NCBI GenBank assembly: GCA_000934665.2
Contig: JYFJ02007101.1
Location: 1-33,686, forward strand
DNA length: 33,686 nucleotides
Reading direction: 5' to 3'
Origin: Catajapyx aquilonaris
Taxonomy: Eukaryota
Each line of letters starts with the position of its first letter. Position 1 is the first letter of the stretch. The notes below the pieces were generated by a model. That model searched no databases and was not told the origin of the DNA. It saw only the letters and a list, made by a program, of their open reading frames with translations. The translations under genes were made by a program, and so were the position numbers. Of the stretch, positions 397 to 33,307 are shown piece after piece.

Positions 397-1557
397 TCAC
401 ATGTGCCGGTCCAAGTGGTACTTTTGTCCAAACACGTTTCCACACTCAGTGCACAAAAAGGGTTTTTCTCCAGTGTGAGTTCGCATGTGCTGGTCCAAGT
501 GGCACTTTTGTCCAAACCCCTTTCCGCACTCCGGGCAAGAAAAGGGTTTTCCACTCGTATGAGTTCCCATATGCTGGTCCAAGTTGCACTTTTGTCTAAA
601 CCCTTTTCTGCATACAGTACATGAAAAGAGCGCTTCTCCAGTGTGAGAAAACATGTGTCTATCCAATAGGCACTTTTGCTCAAATGTCTTAGCACATACC
701 CTGCAAGAGTATGTGTGGGTTTTCATATGCTTCCCCAACAGGTCCTTTCGATAGAAGCCCCTATTGCAGACGTCACAAAAATATTTCCTTTCACCGTGCA
801 CCTCACTGTGCAGAGTCAAATTCCTTTTATACTTGAATGATTTCTCGCAGATCATGCACTGGTGTGGTCCTTCATTTGGGTGGACCCTCCTGTGATACCC
901 TAATTGGCGACCAGTTTTAAACAACTTCAAGCATACGTTACAAGAAAAGACTTTCTGATTTACATTATTGCTCTCGTCATTGTCCAAACACTGTGATTCT
1001 TCAGGTGCTGGGAATCCAGAAGGCAGCCCTCCTGCGGCATCTATTCCAGTTGGCGGTTCACCCTCCTGAAAGAAGCCAACATATTGTATATTAGAACACA
1101 CTGCTGTACGACCTCATAGTCTTTCATTTCTGTGCACATGCATGACTCTTTAAGATGCGATTCAGTTTAAACAACTTCAGGCATACCTGACATGAAAACT
1201 CTTCCTGATCGTATGAGTTGTGTTGCACATTCAGCACTGTCTCATGCTCCATCTTGACAAACAGCTGCTCTTCCATGCTGTTGCTTCCTTCTTGCGGATA
1301 CTCCTGTAAATATCAGTCATGTACTGTACGCAGTTATTCGCATGCAAAAATGAATGCCACAAGTCCTTCCTTCACACCTCAATAATGAAGACGGCTATGA
1401 ATTTGCATGAGTCGTTGGGATTGTCATTATTAGTTATTATAAAAATGCTGATGAACAGTATTGTCTTGGCTTGTTCATTAACTAAGATCATAGGACAGAA
1501 ATGTAAGATTTTTTACAAAAGTAGAGAGGCTGTGAAAGTCCCACACCAATCAAGCAA

Positions 1558-4312: not shown

Positions 4313-4999
4313 TTAAGCCGGATCTTTGGCATGCACTGCCATGTGCCTGTCCAGTACCTGCTGGTACGCAAACCGTTTGCAGCACATTGTGCAGGAGAAG
4401 GGCCTTTCTCCCGTGTGAGTTCGCATGTGGACAACCATGTTCGACTTTAATGTAAACCCTTTTCCACACTCCGTGCACGAAAAGGGTTTTTCTCCAGTGT
4501 GAGTTCGCATGTGCCGGTCCAAGCCATACTTTTGTCTAAACCCTTTTCTGCATACAGTACATGAAAACACTACAATGTGAGAAAACATGTGGCTTTCCAA
4601 TTGGCACTTTTGCTCAAATGTCTTAGCACATACCCTGCAAGAGTATGTGTGGGTTTTCAAATGCCTCCCCAACAGGTCCTTTCGATAGAAGCCCTGATTG
4701 CACACGTCACAAAAATATTTCCTTTCGCAGTGCACCTTGCTGTGCAGAGTCAAATTCTTCTTATACTTGAATAATTTGTTGCAGATCATGCACTGGTGTG
4801 GTCCTTCATTTGCGTGGAGCCTCATGTGAGACTTCAATTGGCGATCAGTTTTAAACAACTTCAGGCATACGTTACAAGAAAAGACTTTCTGATTTACATG
4901 AGCGCTCTCGTCATTGTCCAAACGGTGTGCTTCTTCAGGTGCTGAGAATCCAGAAGGCAGCCCTCCTGTGGTATTGATTCCAGTTGGCGGTTCATCCTC
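4313..4999 (-). CDS. Orphan ZnF exon B (7 fingers) with no E1-E5 of its own
   Basis: Open frame from acceptor TTCTTTCAG|GAG at 4999. Homology upstream ends at about 5050, followed by unrelated DNA and then the 3' end of unit C. Confidence 0.65.
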   Translation of the reverse strand, partial: EDEPPTGINTTGGLPSGFSAPEEAHRLDNDESAHVNQKVFSCNVCLKLFKTDRQLKSHMRLHANEGPHQCMICNKLFKYKKNLTLHSKVHCERKYFCDVCNQGFYRKDLLGRHLKTHTYSCRVCAKTFEQKCQLESHMFSHIVVFSCTVCRKGFRQKYGLDRHMRTHTGEKPFSCTECGKGFTLKSNMVVHMRTHTGERPFSCTMCCKRFAYQQVLDRHMAVHAKDPA

Positions 5000-6213: not shown

Positions 6214-8723
6214 TCACACAAAAGCCGGATCTTTGGCATGCACTGCCATGTGCCTGTCCAATACATGCTTGCGCGGAAACCCTTTGCAGCACAGCTTACA
6301 AGAAAAGGGCCTTTCTCCCGTGTGAGTTCGCATGTGGGCAACCAAGTTGCACTTTAATGTAAACCACTTTCCACACTCCGCGCAAGAAAAGGGTTTTTCT
6401 CCAGTGTGAGTTCGCATGTGCTGGTCCAAGTCAGACTTGCATCTAACCCCCTTTCCACACTCAGTGCACGAAAAGGGCCTTTCTCCCGTATGAATTTGCT
6501 TGTGGACGACCAAGCTGGACTTTAGTCTAAACCCTTTTCTGCATACAGTACATGAAAACAGCACTTCTCCAGTGTGAGAAGACATGTGGCTTTCCAATTG
6601 GCACTTTTGCTCAAACGTCTTTTCACATACCCTGCAAGAGTACCTGTGGGTTTTCAAATGCGTCCCCAACAGGTCCTTTCGAAAGAAGCCCTTATTGCAC
6701 ACGTCACAAAAAAAATTCCTTTCACCGTGCATCATGCTGTGCTTAGTCAAATTCTTTTTATACTTGAAAGATTTCTCGCACACCGTGCACTGGTGTGGTC
6801 CTTCATTTGCGTGGGGCCTCATGTGAGACTTCAATTGGCGATCAGTTTTAAACAACTTCAAGCATATGTTACAAGAAAAGACTCTCTCATTTACATTAGC
6901 ACTCTCGTGATTGTCCAATCGCTGTGCTTCTTCAGGTGCTGAGAATCCAGAAGGCAGCCCTCCTGCGACATCGGTTCCAGTTGGCGGTTCATCCTCCTGA
7001 AAGAAGCCAACATACTGCATATTAGACCACACTGCTGTACGACTACGTACAGTCTTTCATTTGTGTGCAGCTGCATGACTCTTTAATATGCGATTAAGTT
7101 TAAACAACTTCAGGCATACCTGACATGAAAACTCTTCCTGATCGTTTGAGTTGTGTTGCCCATTCAGCACTGTCTCATGCTCCATCTTGACAAAGAGCTG
7201 CTCATCCATGCTGCTTCCTTCTAGCGGATCCTCCTGAAAATATCAGTCATGTACTGTACGCAGTTATTCGCATGCAAAAGTGAATCCCACAAAAGTCCTT
7301 CCTTCACACCTCAATAATGAAGACGGCTACGAATTTGCATCCTTCTGTATGAGTCGTTGGTATTGTCATTACTAGTTATTATAAAAATGCTGACAAACAG
7401 AATTGTCTTGGCTTGTTGATTAACTAAGGTCATAAGACCGAAATGTAAGATTTTTTTACAAAAGCAGAGAGGCTGCGAAAGTCCCACGCCATTCAAGCAA
7501 ATATTTTTTACAAATCAAGTACGCAAATGAAAATGATTTGGCATATAAAAAACGTCTCGTAACAGTCATTAGAGTGGAAATTATTGCTAATAATATTTGT
7601 TGCAAAAGTACGAAGACTGTCTTATTCGACGAGCTACTGTGCAAACATTAATTTACAGTATTTTACGGCATATAAGACGTACGCCCACTTCAGCAGTTCA
7701 TATTCACGGGAAAAAAAAGTGTATTTTCGCACATAAGATGCAAGCCGATTTTTTGGGCAATTTCTTGGGGGAAAAGTGTAATTTCCAAATGGGGTCCAAA
7801 GTGTCCTCTATCTGCGATACAAACGACATTTTGGAAGGAATTATTAGACGTCGGTGTCAAATTACGGATGAAAATAGTAGACTATGGAGGTGTGATTTCA
7901 GAGGCAAAACTCAGGGGTAGAAAGGACTCCTTCAGGAATATATGTGCTTTGTTGCCAGTGCGTCATGCATTCCAGACTAATTCTTAACGCAAGCCGTCTT
8001 AGCAGATCATGCTCGCAAACCAGATTGTACCTGATGCGAAGAGACTTCATGATATTCCCAGGATGGTTGGAAACCCGCACTCTCTTCCTCCCAGTCCTCC
8101 TGCGAAAAGAAGCATCGCAGTGTCTGATATCACGTTATACCTAAGGTGACGCACAATTTACCTCGCCATGAGGCTGTTGCTTAACAGTGGTGTCGCCAGG
8201 GATGGCCTGCTCCTCCTCCGCAGCCTGTTGCGACTCCCACTGGTCCTCAACCTCCACTTTGACGCATCTCACCGGCACTTCTTCTTGCGGCGGTTCTGCC
8301 GGCAACTCCTGACAGTGCGCTTCACATGCAGGCGGCTCTGGAATTGAGCGGCACAGCGTTGATCCTACGCAATGCAAAGAGTACATATCAATGGAACCCT
8401 TGCGCTAAGGTGTTGAAGGGAGACCCACCGTCCCTCATCCCCGTGGCGTCTGCTGCTGTCCCACCACCAGCGGCGGCCTCCCTCCTCCTCCTCCGTCCGG
8501 CCATCCCTTCCCATGGTGGCCCTTCCCCCGCCCGGAGGAGGTCCTCCAGCTTCCCCAGCAGCCTCCTCTCCATCTCCTCCATCCGGACCTCCATCTGGCC
8601 CAGCAGCTTCCAGGACACCTGGTCCCACCTGGACACCAGCCCTTCCAGGAGGAGCCTGTTCCCCTCCACCGCGCCCAGCACCAGCCCCACACTGCCGACC
8701 ATCTCCTGCTGGCCCATCTCCAT
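6214..8723 (-). CDS. C2H2 ZnF gene unit C (about 487 aa, 8 fingers), intact, lacks E4
   Basis: Exons 8723-8429, 8364-8162, 8099-8031, 7233-7120, 6996-6214. E4 was removed by a deletion with junction near 7775; the frame is kept because the exons are phase 0. Confidence 0.8.
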
Positions 8724-8884
8724 CCCTCTCAATTAGTAACGCTCCCTAATTAGTAATTATAGCCGATTAATTAGCAGCTCCTGGAGAAGAGAGAGAGAGA
8801 GAAAAATGTCTGGAGATTTCACTAGTTCAATGAGTTGCCGAGTGGGGGCAGCACTTGACACTCAGGGTTTGGCCTATCCCATTT

Positions 8885-8928
8885 CGGACCAAAGATGGCG
8901 AACAGTGTACGCCGCCATGTTTGGTCCG
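8885..8928. promoter_or_regulatory. Inverted repeat with paired YY1/Pho-like motifs (unit C)
   Basis: CGGACCAAAGATGGCG ... CGCCATGTTTGGTCCG. Confidence 0.5.
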
Positions 8929-9094
8929 GATAAGGTTTGGCGGTCGAATTCAAACTGTTAATTATACTTCATCATCATTTACTTCACGGCATACATCCCG
9001 TGTACAGGGGTGACAATTTGCAATTATTGCACATCATGACGTCATTTACTCAACTAACACGTACATGAAATAATCCTCCAATTATATTGTACGA

Positions 9095-11125
9095 CTAGCA
9101 GGATACCCGGCGTTGCTCGGGTTATGAAATACTTTTCCATGTAGGTGTAGGCTAAGTCATTGATTTGCTAAGTAACCTTTGAAATAATTATGGCTATACA
9201 ATGTTGGCATACATGTAACATGGAGCATATTGCATGTGCATGAAGTCGAAACATCACAAACGTTACAAAGTGAAAAAACACACAAATGCAAAAAGATTGA
9301 AAACTACATGACACAGTACCTACGTAGACCACATTATGCCACACCTTATACCTTTATACCACACCTTAAACACGTTAAACCACATCCCATAACGACTTTT
9401 GAATATGGGTGATTTTCCAAATACTTACCATTTTCAAAGCAAGAATTAATGAATTTCAAAACTTGTTTTAAAAATCTGGAAAAATTCTCACTTACTCTAT
9501 ATGAGGTCACAAATCAGGGAAAAATATGGGGAACTAACTCTGATATTCTAATGCCAGGAGAGTGAATATTTCCAGGAGTTCGGGAGCCAGAAGAATGACC
9601 TATGCATGCAATAGGATTAATATCACGGTCCAGAACAAACGTTGTCTATGGAGATTTCGGTGGGTTCAAGAAGACCCTTCATTCCATGGAATCACAGTTA
9701 TTTCAAAACCTTTAAGCCATTATGTGACAGGGAAAAATGAGCCAGGAGTGTGAACTTTTAATTTCCGGGAGAAAAATGACCTTTGGATGCATTAGGATTA
9801 ATGTCACGGCCAAGAACAAACGTTGACTCTGGACATTTCTGTGGGTTCAAGAAGACCCTTCATGCCATGGAATCAGAGTTATTTCAAAACATTTAAGCTA
9901 TTTTGTGACATAGAAAAATGAGCCAGGAGTGTGAACTTTTTATTTCCGGGAAAACTCGGGACACACTTTGGAGTGATGCAGCAAGGTCATGTCAAATGAA
10001 TAAATCGTTTAAAAAATGTTGTTTTATACCTGCAACATTTAATTATAGTATTGAAACTTGTCTAATGTTAATAATGAAATTGTAAGAAAATATAGCATGC
10101 TTTAAAATGAGATCGGGACATGCCAAGAATAGTGATTTTAGGCCCTTTGACATTTTTTGCAGTAAAACTTAATTTAACATTTGTCTTTGTTTTCATGGGG
10201 ATGGCTAGGTGTCAACTGCTTCTCCAAATGTTTAAAAAATCAACTCGCTCAGTCAAGTCATTTTTGAGTTATTATGCTGGGACATGGTATTGGTAAGTTT
10301 TTGGAGAATCACCCTTATACATGGAGAATGTGGAGGTCCAAATTTAACAAAGGGGGAAAAAACAAATAAAAGCAAAACGATTGAAAACTACATGACAGAA
10401 CGTAACACAGTTCGGAACAGGAGAATTCCGACAAAAAGCACATGACACAGTATACGTAGAGGAAAAGGCATGGCAGAAAAAGTACGCCAAGAAAATCCCG
10501 ACAGGCTGCCTGAGCAAACAATAAACCACAACCGCGATTAGTCTACTATTCTTACACACAGCGCATTTGTAACACCAGCTCGAACCCTGGGCCTGCCCCG
10601 AGGCCGTAGGTGGACCGTGCCACCGTGTCTAGGGTAAAAATGGAATAAGATACCAGGATAGCAAGATATGGAACTTATATGAACAAAACGTGATGATTAC
10701 CTATAATTACACCAACATTCTCGTAACCAAGGTAACAGTGTGTAAGGACTTGGAAATGGAACAACGTATGCAGCCAGTGTGAGTACAAAACTCTGACCAA
10801 AGTACAGCCACCGTGTAGAAATGTAATAACACTGCTGAAGCGCTGCTGGAGGAGGGGGGAGGGGGGTGAGGGGAGGAGAGGAGGGAAGGACATGGTTTCC
10901 AGGGCAACTCAACAGCATTATTGGAACACAGGGGGCCAACTTCCCAAAGTACCTCCGCCTCCTGTGGCCAAGGAGGACCTCGGAGGTCAATTCCAATGCG
11001 CTAAGAACCTTCCCGGTAAAAAACTACCCCTGGTGATACCCCTGGGGCATATGTGGAGGCCTCCGTGTGGATTTGCATAGGTCACAGACATCCAGACAGA
11101 TATAGGTCTTGAAATATGTATTAGA
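9095..11125 (-). mobile_element. Complete non-autonomous Helitron (2031 bp)
   Basis: Minus strand starts TC (TCTAATACATATT) and ends CTAG, with a subterminal hairpin at 9105-9122. Inserted between A and T with no TSD. Empty site TTGTACGA|TTGCTGAT at 14456/14457. No Rep/helicase ORF. Confidence 0.9.
9590..9952. repeat. Diverged tandem duplication with about 181-bp period inside the Helitron
   Basis: TGGGTTCAAGAAGACCCTTCAT occurs at 9661 and 9842, and the flanks align on both sides. Confidence 0.85.
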
Positions 11126-11959
11126 TTGCTGATGATTAATTCCAGTTTCATTCCAAAGAACAAGCCTTGCTGTCCACTACAACCTTCTTCAATTTATTTG
11201 TTCCAAGTACAAAATAGTTTTGGTCCGACCACGGATCATTGTGGTTACAACATGACATTGCCGCTGCCCAAGTAGAAAATTAAATAAATAGAAATCATAG
11301 GAAGTTCATACAGAGAGTACATTTTCAATTATTGTCTACGTCTCCGTACACTATAGGCTAGTCTTTTACTGGACGGACACATTGGTTATTAAGAACTTGC
11401 GATGCACCCATCAAATGTTTCATCCAAAGACATTTTCCGAGCAGCTGAAGTGACAGCATTAGAACCAACAAAATGCAAAAAGAGCAGACAATATTGCTTG
11501 CTACTTACAATTCCAATTGTAGACACAGGGTGTTAAAAAACCAAAGATATCATTTTCGAAAGTTGCAACTGCCGCGCAGAGGCATCTGCCCCAGCAATGG
11601 ACCAGATGAGTCAACTTAAGGACATGTAAATACTGGACTCGGACATGTTCTGTACCAATGACTTCATTACTTCCCATGACAGCATTTAGCAAGTTAAATG
11701 ACGGGGGATAAATAATTAAACAAATAAGAATATGGCACTTGGAAGATGTAACAAAAATCTCTGACTGGTTTGATGAGCATACGTATGTGGCCAACTATGA
11801 ATCGGGTCATACTTTCCACAGTCCTTGCACCACACAAGGGTGGTCCTGCATGGGCTGCTGCAAACCGGATTTTTCAGTGAAGCCTTTCTTACAGAGTATT
11901 CACACAAAAGCAGGATCTTTGGCATGCACTGCCATGTGCCTGTCCAATACATGCCTGCG

Positions 11960-12179
11960 TATCCCTGCCGATACTGTGTGAGCTGGCAGAAGAGACCCGT
12001 CGCTGGGTCGTCCGCGTCACTCCCTCCATTTGTGAACAGTGGCTACAATGGAAGCACTCTCCATGAGCTGATGTTTGAATTGGCCCGCCAGACAAGGTTG
12101 CCAGGTAACGGGCTACAACATAAGCAGCTTAGGCCGAATTTGTCAATAACTAAAAGGACAAAAAAGTTTGATCACCCTG
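11960..12179 (-). mobile_element. Tc1/mariner-like terminal fragment
   Basis: Non-paralogous DNA ending ...TTTGATCACCCTG|TA (minus strand TA|CAGGGTGATCAAA), joined to host TATATGTGCTTGTTGCC. The other end is missing. Confidence 0.5.
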
Positions 12180-12885
12180 TATATGTGCTTGTTGCCAGTG
12201 CGTCATGTTTTCCAGACTAATTCTAAACGCAAGCCGTCTTAGCAGATCATGCTCGCAAACCAGATTGTACCTGATGCGAAGAGACATGTTGAGATCCCCA
12301 GGATGGTTGGCGAACATGATTCTCACCCGCACTATCTTTCTTCCTGTCCTCCTGTGAAAAAGAGGCATCGTAGAGTCTGGTATCAAGTTATCTGGTACAA
12401 GAACTTGACGCACAACCATTTACCTCGCCATGAGGCTGTTGCTTAATACTGGTGTCGTCAGGGATGTCCTGCTCCTCCTCCGCAGCCTGTTGCGACTCCC
12501 ACTCATCCTCAACCTCCACTTTGACGCACCTCACAGGCACAAACCCTTGTTCTTGCGGCGGTTGTGGCGGCAACTCCTGATAGGCAACTCCTCATAGTTT
12601 ATCTCAGTTTAGCAGCAGAAGTAAAGGCAACTAAGGTCATAAGACCGAAATGTAAGGTTTTTTACTAAAGTAGAGAGGTTGTGAAAGTCCTATGCCACAG
12701 AGACAATCAAGCAAATATTTTTTACAAATCACCTGTGCAAATGAATATGATTTGGCTAGAAAAAAATGGTCTGGGTATCAGTAATGAGAGTAGAAATGAT
12801 TGCTAATAATATTTGTTGCAAAAGCACTAACAGTAAATGCGTCTTATTCGACGAGCTTGATTGAATCTGCGCAAACATTAATTTA

Positions 12886-13035
12886 TCGTACTGGATGGCA
12901 CATAAGAAGCACCCCCATTTCGGCAGGACATATTCAATAGAGAAGTTCTTCGTGTATTTTCGCACATATGTAGAGGGTTCTTTCTTGAGCAATTTTTGGG
13001 GGAAAAAAGTCTCTCTTATATGCCGTCAAATACGG
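12886..13035. mobile_element. pogo/Tigger-like MITE copy
   Basis: Paralog of 2106-2260. Right TIR TCTTATATGCCGTCAAATACGG|TA. Confidence 0.7.
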
Positions 13036-15645
13036 TAATTAAAATTGCAGTGGGCATCGTTGCCAGATATTCAAACTAATTGATGGCTCTGCCAGCCATC
13101 AGGGCATATTTATCAATAGTGAACTTAACAACCTGCATTTCTAACGATGCCATAGATTTGCACGAAATAAAATCAGTATGCGCATAATATTCACCTTGGC
13201 TGTAATTACTTGGCTCACGTTAAGAAGTGCTCCTGGTGGTTGTTGCTCCGAGATTTGCATGGCAGTGCTGCAAGAAGGCTGGCTCCACTCTTCATGCCCT
13301 GGCACCAGAGGCGTCGAGCCCTCTTCCTACGAAAGGTTAACGTAAAATATATATTCGACAACACGTGCTTCAAGAGCTTGTTCCCAGTGCGTCATGCTTT
13401 GCAGACTAATTCTGGACGCAAGGAGATCATGGTCGCAAACTAGATTGTACCTGATGCGAAGAGACATCATGAGCTTCCCAGGACGGTTGGAGCACGTGAT
13501 CCTCACCCGCACTCTCTTCCTTCCAGTCCTCCTGTGACAAGAAGTATCGTAGTGTCTGATATCACGTTATACCTAAGGTGACGCACAATTTACCTCGCCA
13601 TGAGGCTGTTGCTTAACAGTGGTGTCGCCAGGGATGGCCTGCTCCTCCTCCGCAGCCTGTTGCGACTCCCACTGGTCCTCAACCTCCACTTTGACGCACC
13701 TCACCAGCACTTCTTCTTGCGGCGGTTCTTCCGGCAACTCCTGACAGTGCGCTTCACATGCAGGCGGCTCTGGAATTGAGCGGCACAGCGTTGATCCTAC
13801 AAAGTGCAAACGGGACATATCAATGGAACCCTTGCGCTAATGCGCTTGTGTTGCTGTGAAGGGATGACCCACCGTCCCTCCCCGTGGCGTCTGCTGCTGT
13901 CCCACCACCACCAGCGGCGGCCTCCCTCCTCCTCCGGCCGGCCATCCCTTCCCATGGTGGCCCTTCCCCCGCCCGGAGGAGGTCCTCCATCTTCCCCAGC
14001 AGCCTCCTCTCCATCTCCTCCATCCGGACCTCCATCTGGCCCAGCAGCTTCCAGGACACCTGGTCCCACCTGGACACCAGCCCTTCCAGGAGGAGCCTGT
14101 TCCCCTCCACCGCGCCCAGCACCAGCCCCACACTGCCGACCATCTCCTGCTGGCCCATCGTCTCCATCCCTCTCAATTAGTATAACGCCCTAATTAATAA
14201 TTATAGCCAATTAATTAGCAGCTCCTGGAGAAGAGAGAGAGAGAGAAAATGTCTGGAGATTTCACTAGTTCATTGAATTCAAACTGTCCTTTTCATTTAT
14301 TTAATTATACTTCATCATCATTTACTTCACGGCATAAATCCCGTGTACATGGGTAGCCAGCGGAGTCCAGGTTACAGGTGACAATTGCAATTATTGCACA
14401 TCATGACGTCATTTACTCAACTAACACGTACATGAAATAATTCTCCAATTGTACGATTGCTGATTAATTCCAGTTTCATTCCAAAGAACAAGCCTTGCTG
14501 TATACTGCAATCATCTTCAATTTATTTGTTCCAAGTACAAAATAGTTTTGGTCCGACCACGGATCATTGTGGTTACGAAAATGACACTGCCGCTGCCCAA
14601 GTAGAAAATTAAATAAATTGAGGGCATTGGAAGTTCATCCAGAGAGTACGTTTTCAATTATTGTCTACGTACATTCTAGTCGCATACAACCCCAGCAGTG
14701 TATCCGAAGTGCAGCAAAAGATTTAATGATCTTCAAAAATGAGAGAACTGCGACTTTAAAAAAGACAATAATGAATCTGAGAAAATGCAATGCTGCTCAT
14801 TGTCACGCAGAATACGAAAATGTTCTGTCGCAATTTTAAAAAAAACCTTTAAAGTTTAATAGATCAAACAGACACAAATTATAATACTTTTTAACGTGAT
14901 TGGCAAAAAAAACCTGATGTGATTTGACTCAAGTGCAGCCTGCACTTGAGTCAAATGCAAAATCGTCTCTGTTTGTGAGTGATATAGTACATGTGTACCT
15001 GCTGCAAGATGTATCCAGTTCGATTTCATACTGCACATGATTTTTTAGAATCTGGCATTACATGAGTGCATGATTTTAATAATAAATATATCAGAAGTTT
15101 TCGATCAACTGCATGAATCAACATGGACGGAAACATTGGTTTTTAAGAACTTATGATGAACCCATCAAATGTTTCATCCAAACACGTTTTCCGAGCAGCT
15201 GATGTGACAGAATTAGAAACAACAAAAACGCAAAAAGAGCAGATAATATTGCGTGCTACATACAATACCAATTGTAGACACTGTTTTTAAAAACCAAGGA
15301 TATTCTTTTGAAAAGTTGCAACTACTGCGCAGAGGCATCTCCCGCAACATTGGGGAATATGAGTCAACGCGGAGGAGTTTAAATGCTGGACTCGGAGAAG
15401 TTCTGTGCCAATGACTTCATTACTTCCCTCGAGAGCATTTAGCATGTTCAATCAAGGTGGAAAAAAACTTGAAACATATGGCACTTGGAAGACGTAACAA
15501 AAATCTCTGACTGGTTTGAAGAACATACGTATGTGGCCAACTATGAATCGGGTCATACTTTCCACAGTCCTTGCACCACATAAAGGTGGTCCAGCAAGTG
15601 ATGCTGCAAATAGGACTTTTCATTGAAACGTTTCTTACACAGTAT

Positions 15646-16599
15646 TCACACAAAAGCCGGATCTTGGGCATGCACTGCCATGTGCTTGTCTAATCCCTGC
15701 TTGTGCGCAAACACTATGCAGCACACTGAGCAGGAAAAGGGTGTTTCTCCAGTGTGAGTTCGCGTGTGGACAACCAAGTTCGACTTTAATGTAAACCACT
15801 TTCCACACTCCAGGCAAGAAAAGGGTTTTTCTCCAGTGTGAATTCGAATGTGCCGGTTCAAGCTACACTTGCTTCTAAACCTGTTTCCACACTCAGTGCA
15901 AGAAAAGGGCCTTTCTCCCGTGTGAGTTCGCATGTGGACAACCAAGTTCGACTTTTCTGTAAACCACTTTCCACACTCAGTGCACGAAAAGGGTTTTTCT
16001 CCAGTGTGAGTTCGCATGTGCTTGTCCACGTGACACTTGCGTGCAAACGCCTTTCCGCACTCAGTGCATGAAGAGCGGTTTTCTCCTGCATGAGTTACCA
16101 TGTGCTGGTCCAAGTTGGACTTTCGTCTAAACCCTTTTCTGCATACAGCACATGAAAACAGCAATTCGTCTCTACTGTGAGAAAACATGTGGCTATCCAA
16201 TAGGCACTTTCGCTCAAATATCTTTTCACATACCCTGCAAGCGTATGTGAGGATTTTCATATGTTTCTCCAACAGGTCCTTTCGATAGAAGCCCTGATTA
16301 CACACGTCACATAAAAATTTCATATCACCGTGCACCTGGCTATGCAGAGTCAAATTCCATTTATACTTGAATAATTTGTTGCAGATCATGCACTGGTGTG
16401 GTCCTTCATTTGCGTGGACCCTCCTGTGAGACCTCAATTGGCGATCAGTTTTAAACAACTTCAAGCATACCTTACACGAAAAGACTTTCTGATTTACATT
16501 AGCGCTCTCTGGATTGTCCAACCGCTGTGCTTCTTCAGGTGCGGAGAATCCAGAAGGCAGCCCTCCTGCGGCATCGATTCCAGTTGGCGGTTCATCCTC
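15646..16599 (-). CDS. Orphan ZnF exon D (10 fingers; finger 3 has His>Leu)
   Basis: Open frame from an intact TTCTTTCAG acceptor at 16599. No E1-E5 lies between it and the 3' end of unit E. Confidence 0.65.
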   Translation of the reverse strand, partial: EDEPPTGIDAAGGLPSGFSAPEEAQRLDNPESANVNQKVFSCKVCLKLFKTDRQLRSHRRVHANEGPHQCMICNKLFKYKWNLTLHSQVHGDMKFLCDVCNQGFYRKDLLEKHMKILTYACRVCEKIFERKCLLDSHMFSHSRDELLFSCAVCRKGFRRKSNLDQHMVTHAGENRSSCTECGKAFARKCHVDKHMRTHTGEKPFSCTECGKWFTEKSNLVVHMRTHTGERPFSCTECGNRFRSKCSLNRHIRIHTGEKPFSCLECGKWFTLKSNLVVHTRTHTGETPFSCSVCCIVFAHKQGLDKHMAVHAQDPAFV

Positions 16600-16688
16600 C
16601 TGAAAGAAGCCAACATACTACATATTAGACCACACTGCTGTACGACTACATACACTCTTTCATTTGTCTCTGCGCAAACATTAATTTA

Positions 16689-16837
16689 CCATATTTAAGG
16701 CACATAAGACGCACCCCCATTTCAGCAGATCATATTCAGGAAAAGAAAAGTTCTTAAGTGTAATTTCGCATATGCAGGGCGATTTCTTGATGAATTTTTG
16801 GGGGGTGAAAGTGTCTCTTATATGCCGTCAAATATGG
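16689..16837. mobile_element. pogo/Tigger-like MITE copy
   Basis: Paralog of 2106-2260. Confidence 0.65.
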
Positions 16838-17796
16838 CAATTAAAATTGCAGCGAACAGTAACTATACATATTGGGCATCATTGCCAGATAATAAAAATA
16901 ATTGACGGCTCTGCCAGCCATCGGGGTGTGTTTATGAATAGCGACCTTAACAACCTGCATTTCTATGCACAGTAAATAGAGGAAAATAACTGTGCTACAA
17001 ATATTATCAGCAACATATTGTAATTTTAAAAAGCTACAATACTACTTAAAATGAAACTTGCAAAGAACAAGCCTTCCTATCACTACAACCTTCAATTTAT
17101 TTGTTCCAAATACAAAATAGTTTTGGTCCGACCACAGATCGTTGTGGTTACAAAACGACACTGCCGCTGCCCAAGTAAAAAAAAGAAAAAAAAAGAGGTC
17201 ATAAGAAATTCATCCAGAAAGTACATTTTCAATTGTCCATGTACACTATAGCCTTTTACTGGACAGAAAAACATTGGCTTTTAAAAACTTACGGTAAGCC
17301 CATCAAATGTTTCATTCAAACACCTTTTCCGAGAAGCTGAAGTGACAGCATTCGAAACTACAAAAATGCAAAAAGAGAAGATAATATTGCTCGCTACTTA
17401 CAATACCAATTGCAGACACTGCGTTTTAAAAAACCAATGATATTATTTTGGAAAGTTGCAACTGATGCGCAGAGGCATCTGCCGCAACATTGGGGAAGAT
17501 GGGTCAACGCAGAGGATATTTAAATGCTGGACTCTAACCAGTTCTGTATGAATGACTTCATTACTTCTCATGACAGCATTTAGGAAGTTAAATTAAAGGG
17601 GGGAAAACACTTGAAACACAAGAGAATAAGGCACTTGGAAGATGTAACAAAAATCTCTTGACTGGTTTGATGAGCATACATATGTGGCCAACTATGAATC
17701 GGGTCATACTTTCCACAGTACTTGCACCACACAAAGGTGGTCCTGCATGTGCAGCTGCAAAACGGATTTTTCATTGAAGCCTTACTGACACAGTAT

Positions 17797-20700
17797 TCAC
17801 ACAAAAGCCAGATCTTTGGCATGCACTGCCATGTGCCTGTCCAATCCATGCTTGTGCGCAAACCCCTTGCAGCACACCTTACAAGAAAAGGGCCTTTCTC
17901 CCGTGTGAGTTCGCATGTGACGGTCCAAGCCATACTTGCTTCTAAACCCCTTTCCACACTCAGTGCACGAAAAGGGTTTTACTCTCGAATGAGTTCCCGT
18001 GTGCTGGTCCAAGTGGCACTTTTGTCTAAACCCTTTTCTGCATACAGTACATGAAAACAGCGCTTCTCCAGTGTGAGAAGACATGTGGCTATCCAATAGG
18101 CACTTTTGCTCAAACGTCATTTCACATACCCTGCAAGAGTATGTGTGGGTTTTCTTATGCTTCCCCAACAGGTCCTTACGATAGAAGCCCTGACTGCACA
18201 CATCACAAAAAAAATTCCTTTCGCCGTGCACCGCGCTGTGAAGAGTCAAATTCTTTTTACGCTTGAAAGATTTCTCGCATATCATGCACTGGTGTGGTCC
18301 TTCATTTGGGTGGACCCGCATGCGAGACCTTAATTCGCAACCAGTTTCAAACAACTTCAAGCATACGTTACAAGAAAAGACTTTCTGATTTACATTAGTC
18401 CTCTCGTCATTGTCCAAATGGTGTGCTTCTTCAGGTGCTGGGAATCCATAAGGCAGCCCTCCTGCGGTATTGATTCCAGTTGGCGGTTCATCCTCCTGAA
18501 AGAAGCCAACATACTGTATATTAGAACACACTGCTCTACAACTATGTATAGTCTTTCATTTGTGTGCAGCTGAGGGGGAGGCACGGTGGCCGAGATGGTA
18601 ACGTCTCGGCTTGCTATGCGAAAGGTCCCGGGATCAAATCCCCACCCGGGAGCAAACATTTCGCTTGCATCAATGGGTCGTGACCCGCGCCTAAGGAGGC
18701 GTCTTGGCAACCTGACCTCCTGGGGGGACTGCACCTGGCCCACCGCTGGACAATGCACCTGCACATGTGTCCCCTCCCCAAACCCTCCAACCCTTACCCC
18801 ATTTCCTAGTATTCTTTGCACCGGAGTCCGAAGATAAATACCAAGAAAACTGTATGGTGGTCTGCCACCTGCTTTCCGACTACATAGAGTCTTTCATGCA
18901 TGACTCTTTAAGATGCGATTAAGTTTAAACAACTTCAGGCATACCTGATATGAAAACTCTTCCTGATCGTATGAGTTGTGTTGCATATTCAGTACTCTCT
19001 CATTCTCCATCATGCCAAATAGCTGCTCTTCCATGCTGCTTCCTTCTTGCGGATACTCCTGAAAATATCAGTCATGTACAGTACACGGTCAATCGCATGC
19101 AAAAATGAATGCCACAAGTCCTTCCTTCACACCTCAATAATGAAGATGCCTATGAATTTGCATCCTTCTGTATGAGTCGTTGGCAATGTCATTATTTTAT
19201 TATAAAAATCCTGATTAACAGTACTGTCTTGGCTTGTTCATTAACAAAGGTTCTGAAGAAGCCATAAATTTGCACACACAAAAAAAAGCAGTCATGTGCA
19301 TATTCACCTTGGCTGTAATTACTTCGCTCACGTTAAGAAGCGCTCCTGGTGGTTGTTGCTCCGAGAAACTGTCGGCTGTTTGCATGGCAGTGCTACAAGA
19401 AGGCAGGCTCTCTTCATGCCCTGGCACCAGAGGCATCGAACCCGCTTCCTACGAAAAGTTAAAGTAAAATATATTTTCGACAACACGTGCTTCAAGAGCT
19501 AATTTGTCTTATTCTTAAGAGTCCTCTACAACCTGAGAAAGCTTTTTCCCCTTCTGGATTCCAAATTTTGAAGCTATCCAGGGTTCACAGGGGGAATTTT
19601 TTGGCCTCCGAGAAGTGTCAAAAAAAAATTCATTTTGCTACGTAACATCGGCAACTACTCAAAAAATGACAGTTTTCCTTGTTCTTCTTGCAATAAAAAT
19701 TACACAATGAAGATAGGTACACAACTCGCATATATGTTACCGATATTTCAACAAGCTTCTTATGATCAATACAGTTATTTTTTGGAGCATTTTCCTGGAA
19801 GTTATTTAGAGTCAAACACAAGGGTCATTATTTTAAAAAATGGATAGTAGGCAGTTGTCTATAGAGCGGCAGATTTCAAGGGTCAGTGCCATTCGAAAGA
19901 GACTCTCTGACTCCTTCGGCACTGCTTCTTACCAATTTAAAATAATTTTGCTTACCATCGCGCTGAGAGCAGGCTTTAAAAATCCAGATTTCGTTAAATT
20001 TCTGAATTTTTATTGGCCAAAATAATAGATATTTTAAAAAACTGACAAGCAGCGATGACAGAGGGACATCTTCTAAGCTTATAACAATTTTTATATTAGA
20101 AGTCGGTGTCAAATTACGGAAGAAAATAGTAGACCACGAGGTGTGTTTTCAGAGGTGAAACTCGGGGGTATAAAGGACTCTTAAGTAATATGTGCTTGTT
20201 GCCAGTGCGTCAAACTTTGTAGACAAATTCTAAACACAAGCAGTTCATGCTCGCAAACTAGATTGTACCTGATGCGAAGTGCCATCATGAGATTCCCAGG
20301 ATGGTTGGCGAACATGATTCTCACCCGCACTCTTTTCCTCCCAGTCCTCCTGCGAAAAGAAGCATCGTAGTGTCTGATATCACGTTATACCTAAGGTGAC
20401 GCACAATTTACCTCGCCATGAGGCTGTTGCTTAACAGTGGTGTCGTCAGGGATGGCCTGCTCCTCCTCCGCAGCCTGTTGCGACTCCCACTGGTCCTCAA
20501 CCTCCACTTTGACGCACCTCACCAGCACTTCTTCTTGCGGCGGTTCTTCCGGCAACTCCTGACAGTGCGCTTCACATGCAGGCGGCTCTGGAATTGAGCT
20601 GTACAGCGTTGATCCTACGAAGTGCAAAGAGTACATATCAATGGAACCCTTGCGCTTGTGTTGCTGTGAAGGGATGACCCACCGTCCCTCATCCCCGTGG

Positions 20701-20980
20701 CGTCTGCTGCTGTCCCACCACCAGCGGCGGCCTCCCTCCTCCTCCTCCGGCCGGCCATCCCTTCCCATGGTGGCCCTTCCCCCGCCCAGAGGAGGTCCTC
20801 CAGCTTCCCCAGCAGCCTCCTCTCCATCTCCTCCATCCGGACCTCCATCTGGCCCAGCAGCTTCCAGGACACCTGGTCCCACCTGGACACCAGCCCTTCC
20901 AGGAGGAGCCTGTTCCCCTCCGCCGCGCCCAGCACCAGCCCCACACTGCCGACCATCTCCTCCTGGCCCATCATCTCCAT
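17797..20980 (-). CDS. C2H2 ZnF gene unit E (about 511 aa, 7 fingers; finger 1 has His>Arg), all six exons open
   Basis: Exons 20980-20683, 20614-20412, 20349-20269, 19448-19308, 19058-18945, 18495-17797, with canonical splice sites and phases. Confidence 0.8.
18573..18876 (+). mobile_element. tRNA-derived SINE (second family), apparently 3'-truncated, in intron 5 of unit E
   Basis: A box TGGCCGAGATGG at 18587-18598 and B-box-like GGATCAAATCC at 18631-18641. Absent from paralogous introns. No tail seen. Confidence 0.75.
19519..20180. mobile_element. TTAA-flanked non-autonomous DNA transposon (Kolobok-like) in intron 3 of unit E
   Basis: TTAA|GAGTCCT ... GGGTATAAAGGACTC|TTAA, with TTAA at 19515-19518 and 20181-20184. 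Termini start with purines. Confidence 0.65.
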
Positions 20981-21168
20981 CGCTCTCAATTAGTATAATG
21001 CCCTAATTAATAATAATTAGCCGATTAATTAACAGCTCCTGGAGAAGAAAGAGAGAGAGAGAAAATGCACGTGGCAACTGGCACGTGGAAAATGTCTGGA
21101 GATTTCACTAGTTCAATGAGTTGCCGAGTGGGGGCAGCAAGTGACACTCAGGGTTTGGCCGATCCCGT

Positions 21169-22861: not shown

Positions 22862-25741
22862 TCACACAAAAGCAGGATCTTTGGCATGCACTGCCATGTG
22901 CCTGTCCAATACATGCTTGCGCGGAAACCCTTTGCAGCACACGATGCAGGAAAAGGGTGTTTCTCCCGTGTGAGTTTGCATGTGCCGGTCCAAGTCATAC
23001 TTGCTTCTAAACCCCTTTCTACACTCAGTGCACGAAAATGGTTTTTCTCCCGTGTGAGTTCGCATGTGCTGGTCCAAGTGGCACTGTCGTTTAAACCCCC
23101 TTCCACACTCCAGGCACAAAAAGGGTTTTTCTCCGGTATGAGTTCGCATGTGCTTGTTCAAGTCTGACTTTTGTCTAGACCCTTTTCCACACACCGTACA
23201 TGAAAACAGCACTTCTCCAGCAGTGTGAGAAAACATGTGGCTATCCAATTGGCACTTTTGCTCAAACGTCATTTCACATACCCTGCAAGAGTATGTGTGG
23301 GTTTTCAAATGATTCTCAAACAGTTCCTTTCGATAGAAGCCCGGATTGCACACGTCACAAAAAAATTTCCTTTCACCGTGCACCTTGCTGTGCAGAGATA
23401 AATTCCTTTTATACTTGACAGATTTGTTGCCGATCATGCACTGGTGTGGTCCTTCATTTGCGTGGACCCACATGTGAGACTTTAATTGGCAACCCGTTTT
23501 AAACAACTTCAAGCATATGTTACAAGAAAAGACTTTCTCATTTACATTATTGCTCTCTGGATTGTCCAACCACCGTGCTTCTTCAGGTGCGGAGAATCCA
23601 GAAGGCAGCCCTCCTGTGGCATCGATTCCAGTTGGCGGTTCATCCTCCCGAAAGAAGCCAACATACTGTATATTAGACCACATTGCTTTACGACTAAGAG
23701 TCTTTCATGCATGACTCTTTAAGATGCGATTAAGTTTAAACAACTTCAGGCATACCTGACATGAAAAATCTTCCTGATCGTATGAGTTGTGTTGCACATT
23801 CAGCACTACGTCAGGCTCCATCATGACAAAGGGCTGCTCTTCCATGCTGCTTCCTTCTTGCGGATCCTCCTGAAAATATCAGTCATGTACTGTATGCAGT
23901 TATTAGCATGCAAACATGAATGCCACAAGTCCTTCCTTCACACCTCAATAATGAAGACGGCTACGAATTTGCCTCCTTCTGTATGAGTCGTTGGTATTGT
24001 CATTATTAGTTATTATAAAAATGCTGACAAACATAATTGTCTTGGCTTGTTGATTTACTAAGGTCATAAGAGCGAAATGTAAGATTTTTTTACAAAAGCA
24101 GAGAGGCTGTGAAAGTCCCACGCCAATCAAGCAAATATATTTTTACAAATCACCTGTGCAAATCAATATGATTTGGCATATAAAAAACGTCTGGTAACAG
24201 TAACTAGTGCAGAAATTATTGTTAATAATATTTGTTGCAAAAGTACGAAGACTGTCTCATTCGACGAGCTACTGTGCAAACATTAATTTACGGTATTTGA
24301 CGGCATATAAGACGCTCCCCCACTTCAGCAGTTCATATTCAGGAAAAAAAAAAAGTTCTTAAGTGTATTTTCCCACATAAGATGCAAGCCAATTTTTTGG
24401 GCAATTTTTTGGGGGGAAAAGTGTGTCTTATATGCCATCAAATATGGTAATTAAAATTACAGCGAACAGTAACTATACATATTGGGCATCATTGCCAGAT
24501 AATAAAAATAACTAATGTCTCTGCCAGCGTATTTATCAATCGTGAAGTTAACAACCTGCATTTCTAGGCACTGTAAATAGAGGAAATTAACTGTGCTGCA
24601 AATATTATTAGCAACCAATTGTAATTTTGAGAAGCTGATAAATGGTCACTATAATTTTAGCTGATGACCAATCAGTGTCCAATCGAACAAGGAAGTAAAT
24701 TTCCCAAGCATTTCTAACAAGCCCATAAATTTGCATGGAATAAAATCAGTATATTCACCTTGTATGTAATTCCTTGGCTCACGTTAAGAAGTCCTCCTGG
24801 TGGTTGTTGCTCCAAGATATTGTCGCCTGTTTGCATGGCAGTGCTGCAAGAAGGCTGGCTCTCTTCATTCCCTGGCACCGGAGGCGTCCAGCCCGGAACC
24901 TGCGAAAGGTTAACGTAAAATATATTTTTGACAACACGTGCTTCAAGAGCTTGTTGCCAGTGCTTCATGCTTTGCAGACTAATTCTAAACGCAGGCAGAT
25001 CATGCTCGCAAACCAGATTGTACCTGATGCGAAGTGCAATCGGGAGATTTCCAGGACGGTTGGCAAACATGATTCTCACTCGCACTCTCTTCCTCCCAGT
25101 CCTCCTGCGAAAATGAGCATCGTAGTGTCTGACTGATGTAAAATTATACAAACGTGACGCACAATTTACCTCGCCATGAGGCTGTTGCTTAACAGTGGTG
25201 TCGCCAGGGATGGCCTGCTCCTCCTCCGCAGCCTGTTGCGACTCCCACTGGTCCTCAACCTCCACTTTGACGCACCTCACCAGCACTTCTTCTTGCGGCT
25301 GTTCTGCCGGCAACTCCTGACAGTGAGCTTCACTTGCAGGCGGCTCTGGAATTGAGCTGTACAGCGTTGATCCTACTCAATGCAAAGAGTACATGTCAAT
25401 GCAAGGCTTTCTTTAATGCGCTTGTGTTGAAGGGATGACCCACCGTCCCTCATCCCCGTGGCGTCTGCTGCTGTCCCACCACCAGCGGCGGCCTCCCTCC
25501 TCCTCCTCCGGCCGGCCATCCCTTCCCATGGTGGCCCTTCCCCCGCCCAGAGGAGGTCCTCCAGCTTCCCCAGCAGCCTCCTCTCCATCTCCTCCATCCG
25601 GACCTCCATCTGGCCCAGCAGCTTCCAGGACACCTGGTCCCACCTGGACACCAGCCCTTCCAGGAGGAGCCTGTTCCCCTCCACCGCGCCCAGCACCAGC
25701 CCCACACTGCCGACCATCTCCTGCTGGCCCATCGTCTCCAT
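22862..25741 (-). CDS. C2H2 ZnF gene unit F (8 fingers; finger 2 has Cys>Gly), possibly pseudogenising
   Basis: Exons 25741-25444, 25372-25170, 25104-25024, 24899-24759, 23869-23756 and 23647-22862 are all open. The E6 acceptor is CGG instead of CAG (23650-23648), and the upstream conserved block is replaced from about 25795. Confidence 0.6.
24291..24447. mobile_element. pogo/Tigger-like MITE copy
   Basis: TA|CGGTATTTGACGGCATATAAGACGC ... GTGTCTTATATGCCATCAAATATGG|TA. Confidence 0.75.
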
Positions 25742-28044: not shown

Positions 28045-31000
28045 TCACACAAGAGCCAGATCTCTGGCATGCACTGCCATGTGACTGTTCAATACATGCT
28101 TGTACGCAAACCCTTTGCAGCACACCTTACAAGAAAGGGGCCTTTCTCCCGTGTGAGTTCGCATGTGGACAACCAAGTTCGACTTTTCTGTAAACCCCTT
28201 CCCACACTCAGTGCAAGAGAAGGGTTTTTCTCCAGTGTGAGTTCGCATGTGCTTGTCCAAGTGAGACTTGCACGTAAACCTCTTTCCGCACTCAGTGCAT
28301 GAAGAGGGTTTTACACTCGTATGAGTTCGCATGTGCTGGTCCAAGTTGGACTTTCGTCTAAACCTTTTCCCACATACAGTAGAAGAAAAAGGCACTTCTC
28401 CAGTGTGAGAAGACATGTGGCTTTCCAATAGGCACTTTTGCTCAAACGTCTTTGCACATACCCTGCAAGAGTATGTGTGGGTTTTCAAATGCCTCCCCAA
28501 CAGGTCCTTTCGATAGAAGCCCCTATTGCAGACGTCACAAAAATATTTCCTTTCACCGTGCACCTCACTGTGCAGAGTCAAATTCCTTTTATACTTGAAT
28601 GATTTCTCGCAGATCATGCACTGGTGTGGTCCTTCATTTGGGTGGACCCTCCTGTGCCACTTCAATTGGCGATCAGTTTTAAACAACTTCAGGCATACGT
28701 TACAAGAAAAGACTTTCTCATTTACATTAGCACTCTCGTGATTGTCCAACCGCTGTGCTTCTTCATGTGCTGAGAATCTATAAGGCAGCCCTCCTGCAGT
28801 ATAGATTCCAGTTGGCGGCTCATCCTCCTGAAAGAAGCCAACATACTACATATTAGATCACACTGCTGTACGACTACATAGAGTCTTTCATGCATGACTT
28901 TTTAAGATGCGATTCAGTTTAAACAACTTCAGGCATACCTGACATGAAAACTCTTCCTGATCGTATGAGTTGTGTTGCACATTCAGCACTGTCTCATGCT
29001 CCATCTTGACAAACAGCTGCTCTTCCATGCTGTTGCTTCCTTCTTGCGGATCCTCCTGAAAATATCAGTCATGAACAGTACGCACTCATCCGCATGCAAA
29101 AGTGAATGCCACAAACGTCCTTCCTTCACACCTCAATAATGAAGACGGCTATGAATTTACATCCTTCTGTATGAGTCGTTGGCAATGTCATTATTTTATT
29201 ATAAAATTACTGATGAACAGTATTGTCTTGGCTTGTTGATTAACAAAGGTCATAAGACCGAAAGGTAAGATTTTTTACAAAAGCAGAGAGGCTGTGAAAC
29301 TCCCATGACAATCGAGCAAAAAATTTTTACAAATCACCTGCGAAAATGAAAATGATTTGGCATTTAATAAATTTGGCATTTAATAAATGTCTGGGTAACA
29401 GTAATGAGAGCGAAAATTATTGCTAATAATATTTGTTGCAAAAGTACTAAGACTGTCTAATTCGACGAGCTTGATTGAATATGTGCAAATATTAATTTGA
29501 AGTATTTGACGGCACATAAGAAGCATCCCCATTTCAGCAGGGCATATTCAGGGAAAAAAAGTTCTTGCGTTAGTATATTTTCGCATATAAGAAGCAGGGC
29601 GATTTCTTGAGCAATTATGAACTCGAGTGCTTGAGCATGTATGATTCGCTATTATGCTCGCTTCCTACGAAAGGTTAACGTAAAATATATTTTCGACAAC
29701 ACATGCTTCTAGAGCTAATTTGTCTTATTCTTAAGAGTCCTTTCTACCCAGACAGCCTGAGAAAGCTGACTTTTTCCCCCTCTGGATTCCAAATTCGAAG
29801 CTATCCAGTGTTCACAGGGGAAATTATTTGGCCTCCGAGAAGTGTAAAAAAAAAATCATTTTGCCGCATAACGTAGGCAACTACTCAAAAAATGACACTT
29901 TCCTGTGTTCTTGCGATAAAATTTACACAATGAAGATAGGCAAACAACTCGCATATCTGTTACCGTGATTTACACAAGCTTCTAACGATGAATAAGGTTA
30001 TTTTTTGGAGCATTTTCCTGGAAGTTATTTAGTCAAACATAGGGGTCAATATTTTTAAAAATGGATAGTAGGCAGTTGTCTATAGAGCGGCAGATTTCAA
30101 GGGGCGGCAAATTGAGTGGGAGATATGTTTGAGTCCGGGTCAAGTTAGGCCATTTCCCATAAGGATTTGCTCTGCTGATGTGTGGTTGCCTATCTACAGA
30201 TGCTACTTGTAATTTTATCAGATTTACGGGCTATTACATATCCCTAATGGCGTAAATGCATGATGTAATACTTGTTTCAAATGTGAAATTGCCTGCCCTT
30301 TTCGGCAAAAAAAATTTCATTTTTTAACAGCTGCACAAATCACTGGTAAAAAGTGATATTTTTGCAAACAAATGTAATTTCAAAATGAGAGCCAAAGTCA
30401 AATGGCATCACATTGGCATCAAAATGCGGTCCAAAGTGTCCTCTACCTGTGATACAAACGACATTTTGGAAGGAATTATTAGAAGTCGGTGTCAAATTAC
30501 GGAAGAAAATTGTAGACTACAGAGGTCTGTTTTCCGAGGCGAAACTCGGGGGTAGAAAGGACACTTTATGTAATACATGTGCTTGTTGCCAGTGCGTCAT
30601 GCTTTCCAGACTAATTCTAAACGCAAGCCGTCTTAGCAGATCATGCTCGCAAACCAGATTGTACCTGATGCGACGAGACATCATGAGATCCCCAGGATGG
30701 TTGGAGCATATGATCCTCACCCGCACTCTCTTCCTTCCAGTCCTCCTGTGACAAGAAGTATCGTAGTGTCTGATATCACGTTATACCTAAGGTGACGCAC
30801 AATTTACCTCGCCATGAGGCTGTTGCTTAACAGTGGTGTCGGCAGAGATGTACTGCTCCTCCTCCGCAGCCTGTTGCGACTCCCACTGGTCCTCAACCTC
30901 CACTTTGACGCACCTCACAGGCACTTCTTCTTGCGGCTGTTCTGCCGGCATCTCCTGACAGTGGGCTTCACATGCAGGCGGCTCTGGAATTGTGCGGTAC

Positions 31001-32302: not shown

Positions 32303-33307
32303 TCACACAAAAGCGGGAGCTTGTGCATGCACTGCCATGTGCCTGTCCAATACATGCTTGTGTGCAAACCCTTTGCAGCACACGATGCAGGAAAAGGGCC
32401 TTTCTCCCGTGTGAGTTCGCATGTGATAGTCCAAGCTGGACTTCCATCTAAACCCTTTTCCACACTCAGTGCACGAAAATGGTTTTCCTCCCATATGAGT
32501 TCGCATGTGCTGGTCCAAGTGGCACTTTTGTCCAAATCGCCTTCCACACTCCAGGCAAGAAAAGGGTTTTTCTCCAGTATGAGTTCGCATGTGCTTGTCC
32601 AAGCCATACTTTTGTCTAAACCCTTTTCTGCATACAGTACATGAAAACAGCACTTTGTGAGAAGACATATGTGGCTATCCAATTGGCACTTTTGCTCAAA
32701 CGTCATTAATTTCACGTACCCTGCAAGAGCATGTGTGGGTTTTCAAATGATTCTCAAACAGTTCCTTTCCATAGAAGCCCTGATTGCACACTTCACAAAA
32801 AAATTCCGTTTCACCATGCACCTTGCTGTGCAGAGTCGTATTCCTTTTATACTTGAAAGATTTGTTGCCGATCATGCACTGGTGTGGTCCTTCATTTGCG
32901 TGGACCCACATGTGAGACTTTAATTGGCAACCCGTTTTAAACAACTTCAAGCATATGTTACAAGAAAAGACTTTCTCATTTACATTATTGCTCTCTGGAT
33001 TGTCCAAACACTGTGCTTCTTCATGTGCGGATAATCCAGAAGGCAGCCCTCCTGCGGTATTGATTCCAGTTGGCGGTTCATCCTCCTGAAAGAAGCCAAC
33101 ATACTGTATATTAGAACACACTGCTTTACGACTAAGAGTCCTTCATGCATGACTTTTTAAGATGCGATTAAGTTTAAACAACTTCAGGTTTACCTGACAT
33201 GAAAACTCTTCCTGATCGTATGAGTTGTGTTGCACATTCAGCACTACGTCAGGCTCCATCATGCCAAATAGCTGCTCTTCCATGCTGCTTCCGTCTTGCG
33301 GATCCTC
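32303..33307 (-). pseudogene. Unit H: E5 (33307-33194) and a frameshifted E6 (33085-32303, 8 fingers); upstream exons not in the window
   Basis: A +4 insertion near 32708 and a +2 insertion near 32668 disrupt finger 4, with a stop at 32698-32696 between them. Confidence 0.75.

Follow-up and report, generated by a model that had tools for sequence, protein, structure and literature searches.

BTB genes of the lola/fruitless/broad type carry alternative finger exons. C2H2 helices read DNA at positions -1, 2, 3 and 6 (PMC4351887), and tetrapod KRAB zinc-finger genes are described as forming tandem clusters with frequent pseudogenes, gain and loss of fingers and positive selection on the contact residues (PMC4351887, PMC6444547). 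The FiNZ-ZNF genes of cyprinid fish, about 700 in number and reported as specific to cyprinids, have a lineage-specific N-terminal module of 28 amino acids without known domain match upstream of the finger exon; they are young paralogs in which dN/dS>1 is enriched at base-contacting residues, and knock-down evidence of transposon repression has been presented (PMC10547256, Wells et al. 2023). Among invertebrates, the ZF271-like/APEZ genes of Oncopeltus and pea aphid occur four to eight to a cluster, vary in finger number, include pseudogenes and are reported without a domain besides the fingers (PMC6444547), while Drosophila ZAD-ZNF genes combine a head-linker-finger layout and fast turnover with selection mainly on linkers (PMC7655104). 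In PRDM9, whose finger repeats of 84 bp vary at the contacts, these positions account for a share of diversity of 0.687 in human and 0.910 in mouse, the lowest value among the complete PRDM9 entries considered being 0.331 (PMC5519329 Table 1).

The window analysed here is the whole contig C4520 (33,686 nucleotides) of a 286-Mb animal genome, that of Catajapyx aquilonaris. It holds eight C2H2 exons (A-H), all on the minus strand, which we read, with a probability of about two in three, as a tandem cluster of C2H2 transcription-factor genes evolving by birth and death, whose helices were shuffled and selected and which is now partly decaying. In a full unit the three head exons (1-3) are followed by linker exon 4 and a single finger exon, and gene E is in frame throughout. 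By analogy, the cluster resembles the KRAB and FiNZ birth-and-death families and would be a member of neither. Tandem arrangement, gain and loss of fingers and pseudogenes are all present, as in KRAB clusters, but the KRAB domain is absent and the tails derive from a BTB multi-tail locus. As in FiNZ genes, a module without known domain match lies upstream of the finger exon; the head here is a predicted helix of about 60 residues in 9 copies, as against 28 amino acids in the published description of FiNZ. The ZF271-like/APEZ genes, compared by description, are likewise invertebrate clusters. The head-linker-finger layout and fast turnover recall the ZAD-ZNF genes, but the ZAD cysteines are absent from the head, and selection would fall on finger contacts here as against mainly on linkers there. 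As in genes of the lola, fruitless and broad type, a BTB exon stands ahead of finger exons in the adjoining locus, which has 10 finger ORFs, and the headless tails B and D may serve as alternative finger exons do; however, the tails here are long poly-finger arrays and the genes of the window have lost the BTB head. A literature search that covered few subscription journals and no supplements returned no account of this cluster or of a new head taking over a BTB tail. The parts are as follows.

397..1065, minus strand: zinc-finger exon A, extending to a premature TGA; 4 middle units (627 to 292); CxxCC finger frameshifted
4313..4999, minus strand: zinc-finger exon B, open; 2 middle fingers (4567-4400); acceptor intact; own exons 1-4 absent
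6214..6996, minus strand: zinc-finger exon C, open; 3 middle fingers (6558-6307)
13195..14167, minus strand: head exons 1-3 of the tailless unit; exon 4 and finger exon absent
15646..16599, minus strand: zinc-finger exon D, 317 codons without internal stop, TGA at 15646-15648; Pfam zf-C2H2 E=1e-40
15670..15738, minus strand: CxxCC finger of D (start 15738); a remnant of the ancestral next finger continues below 15646, past the common TGA
15739..16158, minus strand: middle block of D, made up of five 84-bp fingers whose starts are 16158, 16074, 15990, 15906 and 15822, with helices RKSNLDQ, RKCHVDK, EKSNLVV, SKCSLNR and LKSNLVV (types 1,2,4,3,4)
16600..16680, minus strand: intron 4 remnant of D, carrying a branch-like CTAAT motif; AG acceptor intact
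17797..18495, minus strand: zinc-finger exon E, open; 2 middle fingers (18057-17890); first His of finger 1 changed to Arg
18945..19058, minus strand: linker exon 4 of E; copies ahead of A, C, F, G and H and of 8 of the 10 BTB tails on the adjoining contig C1500
19308..19448, minus strand: head exon 3 of E, 141 nt, phase 0-0
20412..20614, minus strand: head exon 2 of E, acidic; every exon 1 has an exon 2 copy after it
20683..20980, minus strand: head exon 1 of E, one long predicted helix (residues 6-66)
22862..23647, minus strand: zinc-finger exon F, open; 3 middle fingers (23206-22955); a Cys of finger 2 changed to Gly
28045..28827, minus strand: zinc-finger exon G, open; 3 middle fingers (28389-28138); a Cys of the first middle finger changed to Ser
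32303..33085, minus strand: zinc-finger exon H; 3 middle fingers (32647-32396); frameshift near 32700-32715
About 3596-3887, 8429-8723, 13873-14167, 25444-25741 and 31072-31357: other copies of head exon 1
C1500 2333-1391: exons 1-3 of H, located on the adjoining contig

The tandem C-x2-C-x12-H-x3-H units and TGEKP-type linkers are those of classical C2H2 proteins, and Pfam PF00096 matches D in 10 stretches (135.9 bits against a cut-off of 25.2). Exon D runs from an acidic linker through four N-terminal fingers (finger 3 without its last His) and five middle fingers to the CxxCC finger. Six heads lie in the window, one of them without a tail, while tails B and D have no head of their own and have kept a branch-like motif and acceptor; above the intron 4 remnant of D the sequence matches the 3' trailer of other units, and exons 1-4 of D are absent. 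Head exon 3 was seen in the tailless unit as well as in A, E and F, and was not found in C and G. In exon F the usual acceptor AG has become GG, with another AG 3 nt on. A very high-copy repeat block (about 8950-11130), which includes a 181-bp tandem pair (9589-9951), occupies the place where the finger exon of the tailless unit would be expected. Intron 4 of gene E holds a 341-bp high-copy insert (18544-18886) with very high contig depth, and a joint that skips it may be an allele or a paralog. A degraded finger fragment with 75% identity to the 5' part of D lies at 31670-31823, just upstream of head G. When contigs of four runs were aligned on 4000-21100 we saw no splice joints, the joints listed being explicable by paralogs, nor any usable evidence on alleles of finger number, and no RNA dataset was listed with a match to 15600-21100.

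A preliminary description of 15646..16160, which corresponds to the D middle block plus the CxxCC finger, had counted 4, 2, 3, 5, 2, 3, 3 and 3 middle fingers in A-H and quoted ten helices from them. The counts are right (25 units of 84 bp between finger 4 and the CxxCC finger), and all ten helices were found in the register given, which places L at +4 and His at +7. The 25 units include dead ones, namely the third middle finger of A (TGA 397-399) and the first middle finger of G, which is minus a Cys, and they carry 20 distinct helices. The near fixation of K at +1 and L at +4 also holds (24 and 22 of the 25, respectively), as does the concentration of variation at -1, +2, +3 and +6. Indeed, the most diverse of the 28 finger positions are -1, +6, +3 and +2, with -2 level with +2, and this set ranks second in amino-acid diversity among the 7,315 four-site sets drawn from 22 non-structural positions; further variable sites are -2, +5, a K/R linker site and the residue ahead of the conserved Phe. 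Since such a ranking is blind to kinship among fingers, codon models were fitted.

We used a GY94-type codon model in our own code, with branch lengths taken from M0 and then scaled, relative lengths being fixed and the stop codon of A treated as missing. The main set comprised 29 fingers, 25 from the window and four from module I on C1500. In the fixed-class model contacts had an omega of 2.25, the six structural sites one of 0.12 and the remaining sites one of 0.56 (p=1.4e-4 for omega=1 at contacts; p=9e-12 for contacts equal to other sites); other codon frequencies left the contact value unchanged at 2.3. Contacts change about 4 times faster than other sites, and the zinc ligands are conserved. 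The comparison of M7 with M8 proposed in the preliminary description gave p=2.3e-4 in our own-code models, and that of M8a with M8 gave p=1.2e-3; naive posteriors under M8 were at least 0.99 at -1, +2 and +6, 0.83 at +9, which is not a contact, and 0.70 at +3. Contacts were faster than other sites in six of six re-analyses with other trees and subsets (p<=3.4e-4), and in 32 middle fingers of seven other BTB tails omega was 1.43 at contacts against 0.41 at other sites. The contacts certainly change faster than the other non-structural positions, as had been expected of them. CpG hypermutation, considered as a source of contact change, appears unlikely, the codons at +3 and most of those at -1 being without CG.

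An omega above 1 at contacts was kept in five of the six re-analyses (1.88-2.88, p<=0.011), among them one on the 22 fingers left when A and H are dropped (1.88, p=0.011) and one on the 15 left when B and D go as well (2.24, p=0.003). Tree-based tests on fingers break under conversion, according to a warning in PMC5519329, and the rival that survives best turns on this point: under relaxed drift with helix shuffling, the contacts would be surface positions with few structural demands on them, in redundant and partly dead duplicates, that change at an approximately neutral rate, and short conversion tracts would inflate omega above 1. The helix-codon tree speaks for it, with a whole-finger contact omega of 1.00, whereas the helix block on its own tree gives 2.34 (p=0.005). 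Conversion limited to the helix does inflate false positives, since 28 of 117 neutral simulations with every tract placed on the helix were nominally significant; however, the observed LRT of 12.4 was reached by 2 of these 117 worst cases and by none of the 114 simulations with 0-16 single crossovers. Such tracts would not spare the helix sites between the contacts, and these are slow (+1 0.22, +5 0.49). A tree-free pairwise count gave a pN/pS of 0.94 at the four contact codons, a value that is uncorrected and saturated.

The fingers flanking the middle block, aligned gene to gene in nine copies with finger 4 of H and the last finger of A excluded as broken, had an omega of 1.77 at contacts against 1.06 at other sites (p=0.015); the linker stood at 1.11 and the structural sites at 0.19. 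The values of 1.06-1.11 are what drift would give, but in the flanking fingers of C-G the contact pN is 0.21 against a pS of 0.14 and a 3' trailer distance of 0.16 (bare values), which argues against it. On internal branches contact omega was 3.23 (p=2e-4), with 0.29 at other sites and 0.05 at structural sites, and these branches are also where chimeras distort a tree. At the tips it was 1.62, indistinguishable from 1 (p=0.13), with 0.77 and 0.17 at other and structural sites; recent branches look relaxed at all site classes, a point in favour of drift, as are the many lesions described below. Taken with all of this, drift with shuffling appears unlikely to us, if still to be reckoned with, and diversifying selection on the contacts is likely, not certain. 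It is probable that this selection is mostly old.

The 5' part of D, used in a DNA search of the genome, gave at least 23 matches from 17 candidates, and among the matches listed only the window contig and C1500 occur. On C1500 (8155-30159) a BTB exon (Pfam E=5e-9) is followed on one strand by 10 poly-finger ORFs, with the homologue of linker exon 4 ahead of 8 of them. In a midpoint-rooted tree with seven other BTB tails, the two most divergent tails being excluded, the window tails and module I formed one clade (bootstrap 100) inside the BTB tails. By homology the linker-plus-finger module belongs to the BTB-tail family; module I would be either the donor of the window tails or a copy returned from the cluster. 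C1500 also has a second BTB copy near 35348-34953, with its acidic exons duplicated, and ORFs of an enzyme-like gene at 7717-4888, one piece of which matches an oxidoreductase NAD-binding domain while a 312-aa piece is without Pfam match. The end of the window (33438-33686) and the start of C1500 (1-621) carry the two ends of one element of about 1.1 kb, which is also found in C5214 (L014 4731-5822) and whose empty site is intact in intron 3 of F. The two contigs therefore adjoin across the inserted element, and H thereby gets the head on C1500. The element ends in CTAG (minus strand), a feature reminiscent of Helitron-type elements.

The close tie to the BTB tails raises the alternative that the cluster is an extension of the BTB multi-tail locus, whose tails would be reached by long-range or chained splicing, the heads acting as secondary promoters. 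The linker-plus-finger module and the strand are indeed common to both, and live finger 1 of D holds an AG/GTATG donor-like site near 16473, with like sites in 6 of the 7 C1500 tails examined. We nevertheless consider this alternative very improbable, given that six units have ATG-led exons 1-2 of their own in frame with the tail, and that about 6 kb with ORFs of another gene lie between the last BTB tail and head H.

The middle blocks have an 84-bp period, and finger number changes by whole units of this length, drawn from types that the genes have in common. Finger p-distance is 0.249 within genes against 0.219 between them, the nearest neighbour of every window finger (25/25) sits in another gene, and the fingers group by type across genes, in about four types, and not by gene. 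Module I has the four types in order and D reads 1,2,4,3,4, so that D, to judge from this order, has gained a unit relative to module I; B, C, E, F, G and H each fall short of four middle fingers. The first 30 bases of fingers B1, C1, E1 and H1 are identical to those of A1 while their helices belong to other types, and many fingers across genes agree fully in their last 27 bases. Unequal crossing-over in the flanks would leave such chimeric fingers and identical ends. The contact share of diversity, computed for two position sets, either of which may be the one counted in PMC5519329, was 0.217 (-1,3,6) or 0.27 (-1,2,3,6) in D, and 0.18-0.37 over nine arrays of 4-6 fingers. A PRDM9-like minisatellite array, homogenised within each gene, with contacts that flip and mark fast-turning sites such as recombination hotspots, is scarcely credible, for although the 84-bp period fits it and the identity across genes of the 3' third of many fingers indicates some exchange, distance is larger within genes than between them, the fingers of D are 74% identical with a contact share of 0.22-0.27, and neither SET (nor PR or SSXRD) nor KRAB was matched in exons 1-4.

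Several terms of the preliminary description have to be qualified accordingly. Its likening of the locus to KRAB-ZFPs stands as an analogy, with contacts faster in every tree and subset, whereas its likening to PRDM9 fails on within-gene homogenisation, on the contact share and on domain content. The middle block it called expandable has grown in D, above the four fingers of module I, but most genes hold fewer fingers and D alone more. The flanking fingers it called fixed are constant in number and vary in sequence (omega 1.06 at non-contact, non-structural sites), and the CxxCC finger it called the last ends the present reading frame but was ancestrally second-to-last, the next finger being cut off by the TGA.

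Many copies are decaying, and most carry lesions. Gene A has a nonsense codon, and its CxxCC finger is put out of frame by a small deletion; in H the frame is lost at finger 4; a zinc ligand is missing from one finger in each of D, E, F and G, while B and C retain all zinc ligands. In A, C-H and module I the common TGA cuts off what was ancestrally the final finger, at a site which is a Cys codon in 5 of the 5 related C1500 modules displayed (module I aside).

The heads have a different history. Nine head copies were matched in the genome. Divergence among copies of the head is about 1%, compared with 11% for the finger exon. Seven copies of exon 1 show 4 non-synonymous and 0 synonymous variable sites with a GC3 of 0.96, and the introns flanking the exon 1 copies (e.g. 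20780-20980) vary at 22-30% of columns; at four-fold sites of exons 1-2, 1 of 49 varies against 53 of 221 intron columns (p=1e-4). Purifying selection as the cause of head uniformity was rejected, since the near-zero four-fold variation and the GC3 of 0.96 fit conversion better, and the uniformity most likely arose through conversion. Linker exon 4, together with the intron below it, has the look of an ancient copy of the beginning of a finger exon, the exon being terminated by a GT donor that falls within a dead finger. No Pfam family was above cut-off for the head: in exons 1-4 there was no KRAB at E<=5 and no SET; ZAD, SCAN and BTB gave no match in the head, and a weak HSBP1 coiled-coil match lay below cut-off. 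The head had no clear match to the BTB gene (best E=0.68). Three further searches are weak negatives, namely head exon 1 searched among longer proteins (none of 2,795 candidates with E<=1), residues 30-150 of D against proteins (0 of 7 candidates) and the ESM Atlas, which had no usable match for the queried protein. A single-sequence structure model returned one long helix, as any amphipathic helix would give, and a two-copy complex prediction scored 0.02. Elsewhere, in C5214 (L014 1-3351), a copy of head exons 1-3 is followed by an ORF with a CENP-B/Tc5 transposase DNA-binding domain (1142-1627) and a THAP ORF (3043-3351), and we saw no convincing in-frame acceptor toward either; a Piwi/Argonaute-family gene with PAZ and Piwi matches (L014 6651-9997) lies about 6 kb from that head copy. 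In C767 (L015 5079-5399) there is an isolated, frameshifted piece of exon 1 with 90% DNA identity over 161 bases.

The reading that we prefer, that of a selected and shuffled birth-and-death cluster, would work as follows. Helices would be shuffled by unequal crossing-over and by conversion among fingers, the breakpoints lying in their near-identical flanks, and selection would favour new helices mainly during the divergence of finger types. Each gene would then read a different DNA word and bring the common helical head there, as KRAB and FiNZ proteins do, and many copies would since have become relaxed or dead. The headless D and B could serve solely as alternative last exons, D for E and B for C. 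By analogy, the family most likely consists of regulators that bind DNA sequence-specifically through diversified readers and share one effector head; that the head is an effector and that the genes are expressed we infer from their likeness to KRAB and FiNZ proteins (PMC10547256). Their likeliest targets would, as a tentative suggestion by the same analogy, be fast-changing repeats or transposons. More speculative still, and distinctly doubtful, is a KRAB-like surveillance family at its birth in an invertebrate: a lola-like BTB tail would have been captured by a new helical head kept uniform by conversion, giving interchangeable genes of the kind "one effector, many readers" with helices selected to follow new repeats, to which headless tails such as D would add specificities via alternative splicing, the head perhaps having been tried on transposase-derived DNA-binding domains, as in C5214.

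Rapid contact change in tandem finger clusters is already well described for KRAB and FiNZ genes, and the pattern as such will not surprise a specialist. The value of the locus is that of a small, traceable case outside the vertebrates, in which the source of the tails, a new head, finger shuffling and decay are legible in about 80 kb. PMC6444547 and PMC10547256, as far as their accounts go, leave open the question of unrelated heads building KRAB-like systems in invertebrates. Should the genes prove to be expressed and to bind young repeats, the cluster would allow a direct test of whether unrelated heads do so repeatedly.
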